Shown: positions 18,704-64,000 of the stretch, in pieces
How the letters are laid out: the number at the start of each line of letters is the position of its first letter
How positions within the stretch are numbered: position 1 is the first letter of the stretch
Virus record (IMG/VR): IMGVR_UViG_3300025073_000448
Strand: one strand, 5' to 3'
Source: a virus
Length of the DNA: 64,000 nt
Position numbers and translations under genes: made by a program
Notes under the pieces: generated by a model
Seen by the model: only the letters and a program-made list of their open reading frames with translations
Database searches by the model: none
Told to the model about the DNA's origin: nothing

Positions 18704-18997
18704 ATGGGTTCATCGCAGGAAATCATCACCGTCCACGAAGTAACCTACGCATCCGGCGCCAAGCGGGTAAGCGTGCTCTGCAATGACGTCGAGGAGGTTC
18801 GCGGCATGGTGGATAAGTTTCTCGGCTCCTCTTCGCCAGGTGGCAACAGCGACCACGATCAGTCACTCAAAATCACAAGGAAGGCGATGTCGAGAAAAGA
18901 GTTCGATTCCCTTGAAGATTGGGATGGAGGTGGTGGAGGTGGTGGAGGAAAGGCCGGGAGGATGGAAGCCGGGAAGGGTGGGAGGCCAACGCCATGA
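18704..18997 (+). CDS. Hypothetical protein
   Basis: ORF bridging adjacent genes, coupled to the next gene. Confidence 0.55.
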   Translation: MGSSQEIITVHEVTYASGAKRVSVLCNDVEEVRGMVDKFLGSSSPGGNSDHDQSLKITRKAMSRKEFDSLEDWDGGGGGGGGKAGRMEAGKGGRPTP

Positions 18998-19497
18998 CGC
19001 CCCCCTCCCTCTTCACGGACCTCACCGTCATTTCTTGCCCCAACTGCAACGCGAATTATGCCGCCTCTCAGTCGATCTGCCCTCGGTGCCGGGGAATGGG
19101 TGGAAAGAAACATGAATGCGCTGACGGGGCTAAAAAGGGGGTTAATGGAGGTAATGACGTTGAAGGCAATGGAAGCAATCCCCCCCTCTTCGAGGCAACG
19201 GAAGGCCCCGAGCGAGACCTAGAGGAAGAGGTGGAGGCGTGGCTTGATGAGCAGCATTACTATTTTTTTCATGACAGATCAAAAAAAGCGAATTCCCCGG
19301 GCTTCCTTGATCTGGTGATTGCGCTTCCAAGAGCTGTCACTGCATGGCTCGAGTTAAAAAAGAAAAATGAGTACCCGACGAAGGAGCAAAAAGAAACGAT
19401 TCAGCATTTGAGCGCGCTTGGCCATCATGTTAAGGTGGCGAGAAGCTTGGAAGAGGTGAAGGCTTGGATTGAGGGATTGCTTGGAAGGGAGGAATAG
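18994..19497 (+). CDS. VRR-NUC domain nuclease with N-terminal zinc ribbon
   Basis: ERDLEEEV...PGFLDL...WLELK...PTKEQ...VARSLEEV. Confidence 0.85.
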   Translation: MTPPSLFTDLTVISCPNCNANYAASQSICPRCRGMGGKKHECADGAKKGVNGGNDVEGNGSNPPLFEATEGPERDLEEEVEAWLDEQHYYFFHDRSKKANSPGFLDLVIALPRAVTAWLELKKKNEYPTKEQKETIQHLSALGHHVKVARSLEEVKAWIEGLLGREE

Positions 19498-19503
19498 TGC
19501 CTC

Positions 19504-19593
19504 GTGTTCCCCACATGCGCGGGGATGAACCGATGATGATCGACGGGCTGGTCACAGTCAAGGTGTGTTCCCCACATGCGCGGGGATGAACCG
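19504..19593 (+). CRISPR. Type I-E-like CRISPR mini-array: 2 identical 29-nt repeats, 1 spacer of 32 nt, no cas genes
   Basis: GTGTTCCCCACATGCGCGGGGATGAACCG at 19504-19532 and 19565-19593; spacer ATGATGATCGACGGGCTGGTCACAGTCAAGGT. Confidence 0.93.
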
Positions 19594-19640
19594 GCATCGT
19601 TGTGGATGGATGGATGGGCGAGAAGGAGGGATATAAAACA

Positions 19641-20072
19641 ATGAACGCAAGGCCAACAATCGATCCAAGATACCTCTGTCAGCAGCATCTGAATGGTGCC
19701 CACTTTGAACACCACAAGCATGAGAAGAAGTGGACGGTCAAGAAGATGCGCCCCGGAAAATACCTCACCAACAATTGTTTCGAGCCGGCCAACTACAAAG
19801 CAAGGCATGACGAGTTCGTGGCGGAAATGCTGCGGCGCGGAGGAAACCACAACTCTCCGATTGAGCAGCCGGATTTTAGCTATTTGCCCGACGAGGAGCG
19901 CGAATGGAAGGCAGACCCGGAGGCCGCCAGACAGGCTCTCATGGATCGGTGTTGGGAGTACAGGACCATGATCTTGCATCGCGTGGACTTTTTGTCGATG
20001 ATGGAGGCCGGGGGTCAAGCACAAAAAGAAGCATGGAAGGAATCACGAAAAGGGAAAAGGAGCATGGAATGA
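19641..20072 (+). CDS. Pyrimidine-dimer DNA glycosylase/endonuclease V-like protein
   Basis: IDPRYLCQQHLNGAHFEHH...RHDEFVAEMLRRGGNHNSP matches the DenV-like (Pyr_excise) pattern. Confidence 0.65.
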   Translation: MNARPTIDPRYLCQQHLNGAHFEHHKHEKKWTVKKMRPGKYLTNNCFEPANYKARHDEFVAEMLRRGGNHNSPIEQPDFSYLPDEEREWKADPEAARQALMDRCWEYRTMILHRVDFLSMMEAGGQAQKEAWKESRKGKRSME

Positions 20073-31238: not shown

Positions 31239-34200
31239 ATGGTAGGCGGTGGAGGACTCCAACAGGGGTGGATGAGGCAACAGGCGGTGCCGGTATTTCA
31301 GGTAGGACAAGCAGCGCCGCAACAAGCCCCTCCCCTTCAAGGCACATCACTACCTTCAAGGTTTCTCTCCCCTTCCCAGCCCTATCCGCCCTACCAGCCA
31401 CCTCCGCCGGCTTCTCTTCCCCCTCAGCCCTACATGCGCCTTATCTCAAATGATGAGCTGGATTATCATTCACGCATGCAAGTTCAGCAGGCCGATGCCG
31501 AGAAGCTCCAAAACCAGCAGCAAATACTTTCCATTGGAACCCACATTCGCACATGCTTCGAGGCCGCGCGAAACGCCAAGCAGCAATCCATCCAGCCCCG
31601 CCTCCTGAAATGCTTGCGGCAGCGCCTCGGGGAATACGAGGCCGACGAGCTCTCCCTCATTCAGTCCCGTGGCGGCTCGGAAGTCTTCATCATGATCACC
31701 AACATCAAATGTCGCGCGCTCGAAAGTTGGTGCCGTGACATCCTTCGCCCGCCAGGAGGGAAACCATTTTCTCTTAACGCGACCCCGATCCCCACGCTTT
31801 CGCCGCAACTAGAGCAGCGCTTGGTTGTCGAGGCTCAGCGCGAGATCCTTGAGGCCGGTGCTCCAATATCCTCCGAAGAGCTGCGGACTCGCATCGAGAA
31901 GATGAAGGAGAAGCTTTCCGCGACCTATGACGAGGAAGGGAAGAAGCGGGCGGACAAGCTCGAAGAGAAGACCGACGATGACTTCAAGGAGGGTGGGTGG
32001 TATTCCGCGCTCGATTCCTTGCTCTATGACATCGCCACTTTCCCCACGGCATTCTTGAAGGGCCCGACGATCCGCAGGAAAGCAAGGATTGTCTGGGACC
32101 ACTCACAAGACTTGATGAACCCGGAAATGCGTGTCGAAAAGAAGCTCGTGAAGGAATATGACCGCGTTTCCCCTTTCGACATCTTCCCTTCACCAGGGGC
32201 CCGGACCTTGCAGGATGGGTATCTCCTGGAGCGGGATTCCATTTCCAGGTCCGAGCTTGCATCCCTCGCCGGGACTCCAGGCTATCACTCCGAGCAGATT
32301 CGGCTTTGCTTGCAGCACTACGGGCGCACCGGTTACCGCGAGTGGGATTACCAGGATCAGGAGCGCGCTCGATTAGAGAGCCGGGAAGAGGAATACACTT
32401 CGGATCCTGAAGGGAAAATGGACTCTTTGATCTTCTGGGGCTCCGTCCAGGGAAGCTTGCTCATCGAATGGGGAATGAGGGAGCATGTAAGTGCCGAGCG
32501 CCGGCCGGGCGCCATGGTCACGAAGGTCGAGCCGATTGAGCCTGAAAGGGAATATCAGGTCTGTGCGCGGGCCGTTGGTCAATATGTCATCAAGGCCATA
32601 GTGAATCCCGACCCGCTTGGGAATCGCCCTTACTATTCCGCCAGCTTCGAAAACGTTCCTGGCTCGATTTGGGGGAAAGCCCTCCCGGAAGTCATGGCTC
32701 CAGAGCAGTATATGTGCAACGCCGCGGCGCGGTCGGTGGTCAATAATATGGGAATGGCGTGCCTGACTGGAGACACTGTTGTATATAGGCATGCGTCCAA
32801 TGGAAGGAAATATTCAGAAGTAACTCTCTTGGAGTTATGGAATAAAAAGAAGCTACACAATAGTGGTTTAAGGAGAATAAAACTTCGATCTCTCGATGAA
32901 GAAAACGGAACATTCATTTCCAATAGGATTGTTGATATTGTTGATAACGGGATAGCTGAAGTATACGAAATAAAAACAGAAAATGGTTATGTTATCAAGG
33001 CCACCGGAAATCACAGATTCATGAGGGATGATGGTGAATGGCAAGAGCTTGATAGCTTTGATGTTGGAGATCTTGTTGCTGTAAATGGACAAGTTGTGCC
33101 ACTTCCTAAAAAATGCATAGAATGTGGCGCCGACACTGCAACAAGAGGTGTTAGATGTCGATCTTGTGCGTCGAAAGCACATAATTCCAAATGGAATCAA
33201 GAACAAATCAGGAAGGCCAGCACAAACAAGGAAGCCAACGAAACCACGGCAAGAGCAAGGCATGAGTGCAAGATAGCAAGAAAGAATTTCTGTGAAGAAT
33301 GTGGAATTAATAATGAAGATAACTTAGATGTTAAATTGGAAGTCCATCACAAAGACAGAGATCCTTTTAACAACACAAAACAGAACCTACAATCTCTTTG
33401 CTCAAAATGTCATCATTCATTGCATGCATTCGAAGATAGCTTAGGGAATCCATACCTTCATAAATATTTAAGCTATGACAGAATTGTGTCGATAGATTTT
33501 GTTGGAAAAGAAAGAGTTTTTGACCTTTGTATGACTGGTCCCAACCACAACTTTGTTGCGAATGGATTTGTCTCTCACAACTCGGGACCGCAGGTTGCCA
33601 TAACCGATGCCTCGCGGCTCATGCCCGGCGAGAAATCAGACGAGTTTTCCCCCTGGAAGGTGTGGCAGTTCAAGCGGGACCCAAATGGGGGAAGCGCCAT
33701 CCCTATTCAGTTCTTCTCGCCAAACCCCATGACCGACATGCTCTTAAAAGTTTACGACTACTGGGCCAAGCAGGCGGGAGAGAGCACGGGGATACCGAAT
33801 TACGTGTACGGCATGTCGGAGAGCTCCGGGGCTGCTCGTACCGCCACGGGACTCAGCATGCTGATGAACGCCGCCGGGAAGGGGATAAAGTCCGTAATTT
33901 TCCACATTGACGACGGGATCACGGTGCCGTCGGTTAGACAGCACGCCTACCATGTCATGCTCTACGATTCAGACTCGACCCTGAAAGGGGATGTGTTCGT
34001 TGTCCCGCGTGGCAGTACGGCGCTCATAGTTGAGGAGCAGCGGCAGATCCGGCTGAACGAGTTCATGTCGTTGGCATTGAGGTCTCCGATCATCCTTGAA
34101 ATCCTTGGGAAGCCTGCGATGGCAGAGCTTGTGCGGAGTGCGGTGGAGAGCCTGGATATTGATCTTTCTGGGTTGATCCCGGATGAGGATGCGGTCGTTG

Positions 34201-34496
34201 CCGAGCAGGAGCAGCAGAAGGTGGTGGCCATGCTTGGCGTGCTTTCGGAGCGGCTCGGGATTCCCATGGAGGTCATGGCTCAGGCGCTGATGGAGGCCGG
34301 GCAGGGGCAGGGCGGCGGACAAGGTGGCGCGGGCGGTGGCAACGTCAGACAGTCCCCTCCCCTTCAAGGCGGAAACGGAGCGGCCGGCCCACCAATAATC
34401 GCACCGCAGCAGATGAATCAGGCTGGTGTTCGTGGAGGCGGGGCTGACTTCCAGGCAATGATGGCCCGTGCCGGAAATGGTGGGGGGGTGCAATAA
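31239..34496 (+). CDS. Portal protein interrupted by an intein
   Basis: Follows TerL; FLKGP, VSPFDIFPSPGA, FWGKAL-like and SGPQV...PWKVWQ portal motifs around the intein. Confidence 0.88.
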   Translation: MVGGGGLQQGWMRQQAVPVFQVGQAAPQQAPPLQGTSLPSRFLSPSQPYPPYQPPPPASLPPQPYMRLISNDELDYHSRMQVQQADAEKLQNQQQILSIGTHIRTCFEAARNAKQQSIQPRLLKCLRQRLGEYEADELSLIQSRGGSEVFIMITNIKCRALESWCRDILRPPGGKPFSLNATPIPTLSPQLEQRLVVEAQREILEAGAPISSEELRTRIEKMKEKLSATYDEEGKKRADKLEEKTDDDFKEGGWYSALDSLLYDIATFPTAFLKGPTIRRKARIVWDHSQDLMNPEMRVEKKLVKEYDRVSPFDIFPSPGARTLQDGYLLERDSISRSELASLAGTPGYHSEQIRLCLQHYGRTGYREWDYQDQERARLESREEEYTSDPEGKMDSLIFWGSVQGSLLIEWGMREHVSAERRPGAMVTKVEPIEPEREYQVCARAVGQYVIKAIVNPDPLGNRPYYSASFENVPGSIWGKALPEVMAPEQYMCNAAARSVVNNMGMACLTGDTVVYRHASNGRKYSEVTLLELWNKKKLHNSGLRRIKLRSLDEENGTFISNRIVDIVDNGIAEVYEIKTENGYVIKATGNHRFMRDDGEWQELDSFDVGDLVAVNGQVVPLPKKCIECGADTATRGVRCRSCASKAHNSKWNQEQIRKASTNKEANETTARARHECKIARKNFCEECGINNEDNLDVKLEVHHKDRDPFNNTKQNLQSLCSKCHHSLHAFEDSLGNPYLHKYLSYDRIVSIDFVGKERVFDLCMTGPNHNFVANGFVSHNSGPQVAITDASRLMPGEKSDEFSPWKVWQFKRDPNGGSAIPIQFFSPNPMTDMLLKVYDYWAKQAGESTGIPNYVYGMSESSGAARTATGLSMLMNAAGKGIKSVIFHIDDGITVPSVRQHAYHVMLYDSDSTLKGDVFVVPRGSTALIVEEQRQIRLNEFMSLALRSPIILEILGKPAMAELVRSAVESLDIDLSGLIPDEDAVVAEQEQQKVVAMLGVLSERLGIPMEVMAQALMEAGQGQGGGQGGAGGGNVRQSPPLQGGNGAAGPPIIAPQQMNQAGVRGGGADFQAMMARAGNGGGVQ
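32760..33581 (+). mobile_element. Intein (274 aa) carrying an HNH homing endonuclease
   Basis: Begins CLTGDT, ends HNFVANGFVSHN followed by Ser; internal CEECG...EVHHKDRDPFNN...NLQSLCSKCHHSLH; AT-rich. Confidence 0.92.
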
Positions 34497-56773: not shown

Positions 56774-56862
56774 AACGGAATGCCGATAAACGGAATGCCG
56801 ATAAACGGAATGCCGATAAACGGAATGCCGATAAACGGAATGCCGATAAACGGAATGCCGAT
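56773..56862 (+). repeat. Six perfect tandem copies of a 15-bp quasi-palindromic unit
   Basis: (AAACGGAATGCCGAT)6, intergenic. Confidence 0.95.
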
Positions 56863-61518: not shown

Positions 61519-64000
61519 ATGGCCTACGATGGACGCATCATCGATGAAATGGCGGCTGAGCTTCTCGGCCCTCCCGCGACCGCCGCAACACAGCCAGCGA
61601 CTACCGCAACGCCCATTGATACCGCATTACCTGAAGCACCGGCAGCACCGGTCAGCCCCACCATCCCCGACGCCGCGCCGATGGTCCAGGAGGATTCAAT
61701 GGGCACGACAGAACAGCCATTCATTCCATCGCAAGCCTCACCAGTCTTCCAGGCTCCGCAAGCCTCACCCACGTCACCCCAGCCCCCCCCCACCTTCAAG
61801 GCATCCCAAATCGACGCCCTGGCCGAGCAGATCTTCGGCCCCGCCCCGGAGCCGCGCACGGCGACAACGCGACGCATGGCATCGGCATCTCGCGGACTGG
61901 CTGGCGGTCTTTCCGATGGCGGCATGGGCATTGGACCGCAAGGTGGGGTAGTCCGCGGCTACGACATATCAAGATACGCGACCGATCCACGCCACGAGCA
62001 GAGCGTAGCCAGATATGCAAACGAGCTTTCCAGTCTCAATTCCATCGAAGCCATAGACGCCCATATTCAATCCGTGGCCCCTGGAAGCCCCGTAACCGGT
62101 TCAATGGTGGCTTCCTCTGCCAGCAGGTACAACGTTGATCCCTTTGTCGTTCTGGCGCTCATGAGGCAGGATAGTTCATACGGAACGCTCGGAAAGGGAG
62201 CCAGGACATTCAATCCCGGAAATGTTGGAAATGACGATGCCGGGAACATGAAGAACTTCGGCGACTGGCAGCGGGGCGTTGACGCCGTGGCCGGATGGCT
62301 CTCTCGACACAAAGCCGGTTCTAGCGGCGGTCTCCTCGGCCTCCAACCCTTCACGGCCAACGCCCCGCCGGCATCCCTGGAAACGCGCCGCCGCGCCCTC
62401 GGCTTGATCGGGATGCAGACTCCGGAGGACATTGCCGCGCAGAAGCGAAGAGAAGCTTGGGAAAGCTCCGTTGACGACATGGCTACCGAGATCCTCGGAC
62501 CTCCCGGGGTTGGTATGGCGGAAAAAGACAAGGAATCCACCGAAGCAAAACTCGCAGGAATGGGGGTTATAGGAAAAGCCCTCGCCACGGGCGGTATAGC
62601 CGGGGTCGCTTCCCTTCTGAGATCATACCGCCATGAAGGGCCGAGAGCCGAAGCTGAATCCATCGACAAGGCCATCAAATACTTCGAGCGTCCGGCAAAT
62701 GAATTTGCAAAAGCGCACGAAGACGACAAGCGCACCATCTTCGGGATCAAGCTCAAGGACATAGCCGATCTTGCTCCTGGTTTGGGTGCTACCGCCGGGA
62801 CTCTGGCCGTTGCAGTCCCCGTTGCCGTAGCAACGACCGCAGCCACGGCACCCTTTCTTGGTCCTGCATCCCCGTGGGTGGGCCGCTCGGCCGGTATGGC
62901 GGCGGCGGCCGCAACACTCCCTATCGCAAAGCGTGCCGACGAGGACCAACTGTTCGAGAGCATAAAGGACGTGCTTGACAACGAATCCATGAAGCAGCGC
63001 GGAAGCAAGCTCACTCAGGACGAGCTCGACGCCGTAAGGGAGAAATACAAGGAGAAGATCAGTCAGCATGGATGGTGGGAAGGCCTGACCGAATCGGCCG
63101 ATACCGCATTGGATTTTGCGATCAGCCTCACCCCGGCCAAGAAGTTCATGGCGCCGGTTGCGAAGTTGTTCCAGTCTCCTTCAGTTCAAGCTCTCCTAAA
63201 AAACCGCATCGTTGGAATGGCCGGAAAGCTCACGGCAATGATGGGGTCGGAAATGGCGCAGGAGGCTGTAACTGCTGCCGGTGTTCCTGGAATGCGCGAT
63301 ACCCTTGGCGGCGGGCAGGCGGACATAGAGCACGCCGTTGGATTGAGGAAGCCATACCAAGGATGGGTGGAGGAAGCCATCCCCGCAGCAAAACAGGCCG
63401 CGCTCCAGACAGCCATCACATTCCCTCTCTTTCAGGCTGGCGGGCATCTTGCCCGGAAGTACCGGGATCGAGGGAAAGGCGGGGAGAGTGATGCCGGAAG
63501 AGAAGATAGTACCGAACACCCCTCGACCCCTCCTTCCGAACAAGAATCTATCACAGAATCATCTCCGCCGCAAGCCCCACAACCCCCTCCTTCGCGGACC
63601 TACCTCCAAGGCATCGACAAGCAGCCGCTCCCCACGACGAGATTGGACCTGGAAGCCGAGTATCAATACCTTGAAGGGATAGCCAAGTCCCCGCCGCAAA
63701 ACCTCGACGTCGAGGCATTTAGGAGGCGAAGAAGCCAGATCGTCAACGCGCTCAACGCAGAGAATTTGTATGATCAACGTCTTGCTCCTAGAGTCCAAAT
63801 GCCGACGAAAGCACAGCTGGAGCAGGCTTGGCTCGGGACACAGGATTCTTTGTTTGCCGAGACAGAAACTCCATCGCAAGCAAAGCCAGAGACTCAACAA
63901 CCAGAAGCCACACAATCAACAAATCCCAAGGAGGCATGGCGCGGAATAGTTCCGAATCTCTTGAAAATGTCCAAGGATGAAATGGTCCGGTATGCACAGG
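61519..64000 (+). CDS. Large internal virion protein with lysozyme-like domain (runs off the window end)
   Basis: Manual translation open to the end; SASRYNVDPFVVLALMRQDSSYG...FNPGNVG. Confidence 0.75.
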   Translation, partial: MAYDGRIIDEMAAELLGPPATAATQPATTATPIDTALPEAPAAPVSPTIPDAAPMVQEDSMGTTEQPFIPSQASPVFQAPQASPTSPQPPPTFKASQIDALAEQIFGPAPEPRTATTRRMASASRGLAGGLSDGGMGIGPQGGVVRGYDISRYATDPRHEQSVARYANELSSLNSIEAIDAHIQSVAPGSPVTGSMVASSASRYNVDPFVVLALMRQDSSYGTLGKGARTFNPGNVGNDDAGNMKNFGDWQRGVDAVAGWLSRHKAGSSGGLLGLQPFTANAPPASLETRRRALGLIGMQTPEDIAAQKRREAWESSVDDMATEILGPPGVGMAEKDKESTEAKLAGMGVIGKALATGGIAGVASLLRSYRHEGPRAEAESIDKAIKYFERPANEFAKAHEDDKRTIFGIKLKDIADLAPGLGATAGTLAVAVPVAVATTAATAPFLGPASPWVGRSAGMAAAAATLPIAKRADEDQLFESIKDVLDNESMKQRGSKLTQDELDAVREKYKEKISQHGWWEGLTESADTALDFAISLTPAKKFMAPVAKLFQSPSVQALLKNRIVGMAGKLTAMMGSEMAQEAVTAAGVPGMRDTLGGGQADIEHAVGLRKPYQGWVEEAIPAAKQAALQTAITFPLFQAGGHLARKYRDRGKGGESDAGREDSTEHPSTPPSEQESITESSPPQAPQPPPSRTYLQGIDKQPLPTTRLDLEAEYQYLEGIAKSPPQNLDVEAFRRRRSQIVNALNAENLYDQRLAPRVQMPTKAQLEQAWLGTQDSLFAETETPSQAKPETQQPEATQSTNPKEAWRGIVPNLLKMSKDEMVRYAQ

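Follow-up and report, generated by a model that had tools for sequence, protein, structure and literature searches.

The DNA analysed here, referred to below as the window, is a stretch of 64,000 nucleotides (IMG/VR record IMGVR_UViG_3300025073_000448) from a tailed phage of about 93 kb, and it encodes a large terminase, a major head protein, a head-tail adaptor, a primase and a RecD-like helicase; no tRNA was found in it. Within a long run of + strand genes, a short CRISPR array lies between two genes that share its orientation. The upstream gene (18994-19497, + strand), called with 167 amino acids on public contigs and with a longest ORF that starts at 18919, specifies a zinc-ribbon and VRR-NUC-like endonuclease or Holliday-junction resolvase. 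It had previously been read as a VRR-NUC gene, and the assignment to the endonuclease/Holliday-junction resolvase group is supported by phrog_93 (at 4.2e-13) and phrog_5702 (at 3.7e-7), but the match to the Pfam family VRR_NUC itself is weak (E 0.064). The downstream gene (19641-20072, + strand) encodes a DenV-like pyrimidine-dimer DNA glycosylase, as had been proposed, with a score of 26.6 bits (E 8e-6) against the Pfam family Pyr_excise (PF03013), whose cut-off is 23 bits, and a match to phrog_1183.

The array consists of two exact copies of the 29-nt sequence GTGTTCCCCACATGCGCGGGGATGAACCG, at 19504-19532 (repeat 1) and 19565-19593 (repeat 2), both on the + strand. Their starts are 61 nt apart and enclose a 32-nt spacer (19533-19564, + strand), a geometry that is canonical for type I-E units (29-nt repeat, 32-nt spacer and 61-nt period). 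The TAG stop codon of the upstream ORF occupies 19495-19497, and a junction of 6 nt, TGCCTC (19498-19503), separates it from repeat 1. On the other side, a short intergenic stretch of 47 nt (19594-19640) leads from the end of repeat 2 to the ATG of the DenV-like gene at 19641 and contains the Shine-Dalgarno sequence of that gene, GAAGGAGG (19622-19629). These coordinates confirm the preliminary description of this DNA, which had reported two identical 29-nt I-E repeats with a 32-nt spacer, placed 6 nt past a stop codon and co-oriented with the operon. That the array has no leader and no cas genes, as was also stated there, holds as well: near the array, a consensus scan detected neither a promoter-like nor a terminator-like site on the + strand, and tblastn with the I-E Cas set of Paracoccus lutimaris (L016) found no cas homologue in the window. 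With no promoter or terminator of its own nearby, the array would be transcribed within the operon. No third copy of the repeat was found when the whole window was scanned with up to 3 mismatches allowed (0 of 100 shuffles matched), no further repeat was found in the 81 kb of the carrier genome examined, and no Rfam family matched in the region 19300-19800.

Exact-protein look-ups of the two flanking genes retrieved 15 and 18 contigs, some of them 92.9 kb in length. About a dozen samples in JGI, ENA and Logan contributed these contigs, among them JGI 3300002097, 3300002727, 3300025087, 3300025117 and 3300025121, SRR3989312 and SRR3989314, and ENA ERZ28563639. The 166-nt junction of the window recurs unchanged in all 15 of the independently assembled loci that were inspected, which excludes an assembly chimera, and the DNA around the junction is 99.9-100% identical across these loci. 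All recovered copies belong to a single, nearly clonal strain (identity of at least 99.9%), and their conservation therefore says nothing on selection. One contig of the same strain carries an insertion of about 100 nt, including a 63-nt duplication, near 56.8 kb (L163:7491-7592 versus 56780-56796 of the window), which looks like tandem-repeat length variation. The 81 kb of the carrier comprise the window, 9.5 kb upstream and 7.5 kb downstream, and the remaining ~12 kb of the ~93-kb genome lie largely within one giant gene. The start of a polyvalent protein of 5,660 amino acids (~17 kb) is found at 61519-64000 of the window and beyond (L164, L165), with Pfam matches that include InPase, Eco57I (weak), Helicase_dom and ART-PolyVal. 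A 1085-aa protein (31239-34496) combines a head-tail adaptor PHROG (residues 98-507) with HNH endonuclease families (residues ~619-735).

As regards the host, a Ros/MucR-family regulator (PF05443) and a PAPS-reductase-like protein are encoded upstream of the window start (L161:15724-16386). Ros/MucR regulators are mainly alphaproteobacterial, and the gene gives a weak hint to the host; another weak hint comes from the relatives of the terminase, at ~44% identity, which occur in phages of Pseudomonadota.

The repeat family and the stem mismatch

The repeat of P. lutimaris (L016), CTGTTCCCCGCATGCGCGGGGATGAACCG, is identical to the phage repeat at 27 of 29 positions, and the two have in common the last 8 nt of the repeat, ATGAACCG, which become the 5' handle of the crRNA; the commonest host variants are identical to the phage repeat at 28 of 29 positions. 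In L016, the array follows cse1-cas7-cas5-cas6e-cas1-cas2 (with an I-E-type cas2) in the same direction, after a leader of 56 nt. This co-directional position behind an I-E cas operon fixes the subtype and establishes that the + strand of the window is the crRNA-sense strand. A scan of species-representative genomes for the repeat core, with R/Y allowed at the variable stem pair, yielded at least 120 loci from many phyla, mostly long arrays with 61-nt periodicity. The preliminary description had pointed to a host with a I-E system, which is reasonable, but a repeat family spread over so many phyla names no particular host. None of the 1858 host spacers from 120 listed loci of the family matches the window or its relatives, and none resembles the phage spacer. 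The exact phage repeat was found neither in IMG/VR, where the window's own records are possibly masked, nor in G001, the nearest phage on record.

Both phage repeats carry the A.C mismatch (CCCCAC/GCGGGG) that had been noticed at the outset, and it falls at the sixth pair of a 7-bp stem. Host repeats of the family exist in two compensated forms, CCCCAC...GTGGGG (n=1132) and CCCCGC...GCGGGG (n=879), and among the matches listed the stem pair is A-U or G-C in 2011 of 2013 host repeats (99.9%), the two exceptions being one G.T and one A.C variant. The lone A.C repeat of a host (L055) adjoins a degenerate terminal repeat. Since hosts keep the stem pair so consistently, the A.C mismatch of the phage is exceptional.

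Cas6e recognises a hairpin in which all seven pairs of the stem are formed and the loop has 4 nt, and in both phage repeats one of these pairs is broken. In an isolated fold, the phage hairpin reaches -9.0 kcal/mol, versus -14.4 or -12.9 kcal/mol for the host types, and it is still the predicted fold. In a transcript of 300 nt, the base-pair probability of the hairpin is ~0 for repeat 1 and ~0.4 for repeat 2, values that lie in or near the wide spread of natural host arrays (0.02-0.97). Cas6e processing or retention may be impaired by the mismatch. The identity of two mismatched repeats reflects one of three histories: the host unit was already changed, a mutated repeat was duplicated by a spacer-integration event, or the two copies became identical by homogenisation. 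The + strand is the sense required for I-E processing; the opposite strand would give G.U at the mismatched pair, and antisense transcripts of the array would carry this G.U pair in the repeat stem instead of the A.C mismatch. A weak sigma-70-like match (TTGACT, 17 nt, CATCAT; 9/12, a consensus match only) lies on the minus strand inside the spacer, at 19533-19561.

Origin of the spacer and its possible targets

G001 (IMGVR_UViG_3300025009_000068; 89,432 bp, CheckV completeness 100%) has the same two flanking genes, with nucleotide identities of 79% for the VRR-NUC-like gene and 91.5% for the DenV-like gene. Between them lie 847 bp in G001 versus 116 bp in the window (19493-19608), and synteny restarts at 19609. 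The 847-bp insert of G001 contains a 90-aa ORF (ORF2) and a gene of 181 amino acids (P0002) that matches RusA-like Holliday-junction resolvases (phrog_34, E 1.6e-7; phrog_1682, 1.4e-6). The spacer matches this RusA-like gene on the same strand at 25 of 32 positions (L128:3837-3868), a similarity that would arise by chance in the 847-bp insert with a probability of ~7e-7. It differs from the gene at seven of its positions (6, 9, 18, 24, 27, 30 and 31), and six of these differences affect the third base of a codon (p 0.0014). Read in frame, the spacer gives MMIDGLVTVK versus MIIDGLVTVK in G001. Another RusA-like homologue, P0003, encoded on a 1.5-kb ENA contig (L131) and 80% identical, matches the spacer at 24 of 32 positions with the same pattern (L131:839-870). 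A match so improbable by chance, with its differences concentrated at third positions, demonstrates that the source of the spacer was a functional, diverged homologous gene rather than decayed filler. The preliminary description had remarked that the spacer reads like the start of a gene; its coding appearance is explained by its being a sense, in-frame fragment of a RusA-like gene, but the fragment is internal, (K)MMIDGLVTVK.

The identity of the spacer to G001 (78%) is close to that of the adjacent VRR-NUC-like gene, which fits a source in the carrier's own lineage or in a close sibling. No RusA-like gene was found in the window or in the 17 kb of extra flanking genome of the carrier. Our analysis shows that the spacer comes from a RusA-like gene that is replaced at the syntenic slot, which is the new result here, and we regard both the anatomy of the array and the origin of its spacer as near certain. 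The 8-mer at the junction, TAGTGCCT, is also present in G001 just 5' of its RusA-like gene, as a single copy in the 847-bp insert (L128:3400; 0.013 expected). The stretch 19594-19618 was considered as a remnant of the 3' end of the RusA-like gene and was rejected (shuffle test, p ~0.5-0.8).

As a hot spot of variation, the slot 5' of the DenV-like gene is occupied in G001 by the 90-aa ORF (L128:3130-3402) and the RusA-like gene, in L127 (2958-3989) by an unrelated ORF of 343 amino acids and in the window by the mini-array. Both relatives at the locus, G001 and L127, come from JGI metagenome 3300025009, the number of which is close to those of metagenomes that hold the carrier, e.g., 3300025087.

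A protospacer is absent from the window at up to 3 mismatches, in agreement with what had been seen by eye, and from the 17 kb of flanks at up to 9 mismatches. Searches of IMG/VR and JGI metagenome contigs with the exact spacer and with its degenerate codon pattern, which covers all synonymous variants, returned only G001, not as an exact match. Similarly, among 5.8 billion proteins, the RusA-like protein found only that of G001 itself and P0003, neither of which encodes the exact spacer. BLAST of the spacer, which had been suggested as a route to its target, revealed no exact one: it found nothing in phages and, in plasmids, only chance-level matches of 24/26 in Ralstonia megaplasmids (E 0.08).

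The best matches to the spacer have 7-8 mismatches and carry AAA rather than AAG at the PAM position. This AAA is a Lys codon in both known homologues (G001 and L131), and AAG is one synonymous change away. The AAG/ATG-type PAM that had been anticipated is therefore not what the homologues possess, but AAA is functional or supports priming in some I-E systems. In the I-E system of Escherichia coli, the outcome with AAA varies with the spacer, one of which elicited direct interference and another efficient priming (PMC4678831), and AAA, AAN and AAG are natural I-E PAMs that differ by repeat cluster (PMC8482600). I-E Cascade leaves every sixth base unpaired, and mismatches at position 6 are without effect (PMC4678831). 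In both homologues, the seed is intact at every paired position (1-5, 7 and 8). With G001, the mismatches at positions 6, 18, 24 and 30 coincide with bases that Cascade does not pair, and only the other three (9, 27 and 31) are effective; the excess at unpaired positions can in part be attributed to the reading frame (p 0.26 given codon position). The guide is complementary to the template strand of the RusA-like gene, and I-E spacers favour the template strand as their pairing partner (PMC8482600).

Possible functions of the array

Our current working model, which we consider the most likely reading of the sequence and hold with about even confidence, is that the leaderless, cas-less I-E mini-array borrows the Cascade-Cas3 machinery of the host against sibling phages that possess a RusA-like allele. 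The array would be transcribed by read-through from an upstream operon promoter, and host Cas6e would cut at the bases of the hairpins to yield a 61-nt crRNA composed of the 5' handle AUGAACCG, the 32-nt guide and a 3' hairpin. This crRNA would then be loaded into host Cascade, and Cas3 would destroy co-infecting or superinfecting siblings that carry a matching RusA-like allele with an AAG/AAA-type PAM. We infer each of these steps, from transcription and cleavage by Cas6e in spite of the A.C mismatch to the loading of Cascade and interference. The carrier would be immune because the array replaced the target, and weapon and resistance would thus constitute one allele, inseparable by recombination. 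The loss of the RusA-like gene is plausibly tolerated by the carrier since its neighbour, the VRR-NUC-like gene, also codes for a nuclease of the resolvase type. If Cas6e processing occurs, a split of the operon mRNA, as the preliminary description had foreseen, follows automatically, and the maturation of this mRNA might then be coupled to the CRISPR status of the host. It is mainly because of the A.C stem mismatch that we do not rate a function of the array higher. Between the two roles initially offered, a hijack of Cascade or a decoy, the hijack gains from the match of the spacer to the syntenic gene of the nearest relative and from the lack of that gene in the carrier, whereas the decoy is neither supported nor excluded, given two repeats with a cognate spacer on the one hand and the odd stem mismatch on the other.

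A bolder version, which we judge improbable, regards the array as a CRISPR-based "homing" allele: a Cascade-Cas3 cut in the RusA-like allele of a rival would be repaired from the array-bearing genome, which would convert the allele in the manner of a homing endonuclease gene. It is based on the allelic position of the array with respect to its own target and on flanks that are 79-92% identical in relatives, and the unit may in that case have arisen when a host spacer against the phage recombined into the protospacer, by which an immune memory of the host would have become a weapon of the phage.

The location of the array exactly at the locus of its target, in the orientation of the lost gene, also accords with a passive history, in which a repeat-spacer-repeat unit was captured, by spacer-protospacer or illegitimate recombination, from a host array immunised against the RusA-like gene of this lineage, was kept only because it deleted the target, a CRISPR escape through loss of the gene, and is now without function and slowly decaying. 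The nearly equal divergence of the spacer and the VRR-NUC-like gene from G001 is what would be expected if the phage's own allele was the source, and a mismatch of the A.C type is seen in hosts only next to the degenerate terminal repeat of L055. The absence of a leader and the lack of an exact target in the databases searched point in the same direction, and recombination with host arrays has been proposed as the origin of leaderless phage mini-arrays (PMC6858448 and PMC7099407, which cite Faure 2019 and Varble 2019). With a 3' remnant of the RusA-like gene after repeat 2 unsupported, the case for formation in situ comes down to position and orientation. Against the passive history, both repeats are full length and identical, the 61-nt unit is intact, and the sense orientation inside the operon would ensure transcription, and an origin by capture is compatible with current use. 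We view a functionless remnant as possible but rather unlikely.

The sibling-directed weapon has also to be weighed against roles in which the spacer does not guide an attack on siblings. Phage repeat mimics inhibit I-E, I-F, I-C and V-A systems (PMC10651486), and solitary repeats of the same family as ours are present in other IMG/VR contigs; abundant repeat hairpins produced by the replicating phage could behave as a Racr-like RNA anti-CRISPR that binds Cas6e or Cascade subunits and diverts them from host crRNAs, the spacer being incidental. The array resembles Racrs, of which the I-E representatives RacrIE1 and RacrIE2 are known, as a phage-borne repeat mimic without cas genes, and its repeats, which deviate at a structurally selected pair, could form an aberrant, non-productive complex. 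However, weakening of the hairpin would be expected to lower, not raise, its affinity for Cas6e, and Racrs are defined as solitary repeats, usually with their own promoter (PMC10651486). The SRUFinder definition allows no other repeat within 100 bp, whereas the present repeats stand 61 nt apart, in register, around a full 32-nt spacer with a cognate gene, and the consensus scan found no promoter near them. This role is unlikely in our opinion. As for a regulator of the Cracr/crlRNA type, in which the guide, through partial complementarity, would direct Cascade to the promoter of a cas or toxin gene of the host and thereby silence it, we consider it very improbable. Cracrs are characterised by a short pseudo-spacer that matches host cas or CreT promoters, and phage I-E Cracr arrays with 2-3 spacer-like units do exist (bioRxiv 10.1101/2024.10.29.618823), but the known ones have spacer-like segments of 21-24 nt, degenerate repeats and matches to host CreR, in contrast to a spacer of 32 nt that matches a phage gene over its full length. 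In addition, the 9-nt PAM-proximal seed occurs 7 times, versus 6.1 expected, in 803 kb of host I-E loci, which are loci of the repeat family and not of the carrier's own host, and no match extends.

Relation to other mini-arrays and significance

In leaderless mini-arrays of phages and prophages, the spacers match adjacent genes of close relatives and not of the carrier (PMC6858448, citing Faure 2019; PMC7099407; PMC11656645). Our element fits the published pattern point by point, and its kind has already been described (Faure 2019, via PMC6858448): 1-2 spacers, no cas genes or host-type leader, host-type repeats, a match to a relative's gene at or near the array's own locus, and a carrier without the target. 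The present array differs from the published ones in being strictly allelic to its target, since it replaces the gene rather than adjoining it, in being embedded in an operon 6 nt past a stop codon, and in having an uncompensated stem mismatch in both repeats.

Medvedeva et al. (PMC6858448) described archaeal viral mini-arrays directed against sibling viruses and called the proximity of array and target unexplained. The phage array is similar to those of the portoglobovirus pair SPV1/SPV2 in that sibling viruses are targeted, targets are near the arrays and the orthologous site of the carrier is deleted or mutated (PMC6858448), and heterotypic superinfection exclusion was proposed as the role of the SPV1/SPV2 arrays (PMC6858448). 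The latter are archaeal arrays of type I-A in which the leaders are host-like and contain a promoter, the spacers turn over, and co-occurring viruses are matched at 100%, whereas the phage array has no leader and a single spacer, with no exact target found and no turnover seen. With chromosomal I-E arrays such as that of L016, it shares the 29-nt repeat, the 32-nt spacer length, the ATGAACCG end and the orientation rule, but it differs from them by the absence of a leader and of a cas operon, by its single spacer and by the broken A.C stem pair.

Repeats of the same family are present in 14 IMG/VR stretches, either singly or in arrays of 2-3, and their stems are compensated in every case. For the spacer of a two-repeat array found in L137:6237-6638 and L139:1338-1739 (3300042282_000008 and 3300042276_000213), a near-cognate (31/32) lies at a distance of 370 bp on the same strand of the contig; its PAM position reads ACG, and it may be a PAM-disabled self-site. 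In L143:836-1040 (IMGVR_UViG_3300043783_000043), the spacer of a two-repeat array matches, at 26/32, a site ~130 bp away on the other strand; this site has an AAG PAM and a seed intact except at position 9, and it could be a self-regulatory or self-priming site. An identical array of three repeats and two spacers is present in L135:10842-10992 and L136:521-671, from metagenomes 3300025309 and 3300025009, the latter of which also yielded G001; its spacers have no match in the window or in the retrieved parts of G001. Arrays beside near-cognates thus recur in the repeat family. Such an arrangement would be expected of a weapon linked to a resistant allele, since recombinants with both array and target would be suicidal, but an origin at the protospacer explains it equally well. 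The "homing" version, if true, would explain why mini-arrays lie close to their targets, both in the published cases (PMC6858448) and in L137/L139 and L143.

Virus-borne mini-arrays are thought to borrow the CRISPR effector of the host for sibling exclusion, and few bacterial cases have a clear target and a clear locus history. The present case is legible in these respects: the target family is a RusA-like resolvase, the array is allelic to it, a plausible backup resolvase adjoins, and the element is fixed in a strain from about a dozen samples. Even if the array is inert, it documents the loss of a gene at a CRISPR-targeted site together with the capture of a host repeat-spacer unit. Its 90 nt furthermore constitute a test system for whether operon-embedded leaderless arrays can be processed, for whether a stem mismatch that hosts do not tolerate abolishes, weakens or redirects the use of Cas6e and Cascade, and for why mini-arrays adjoin their targets.
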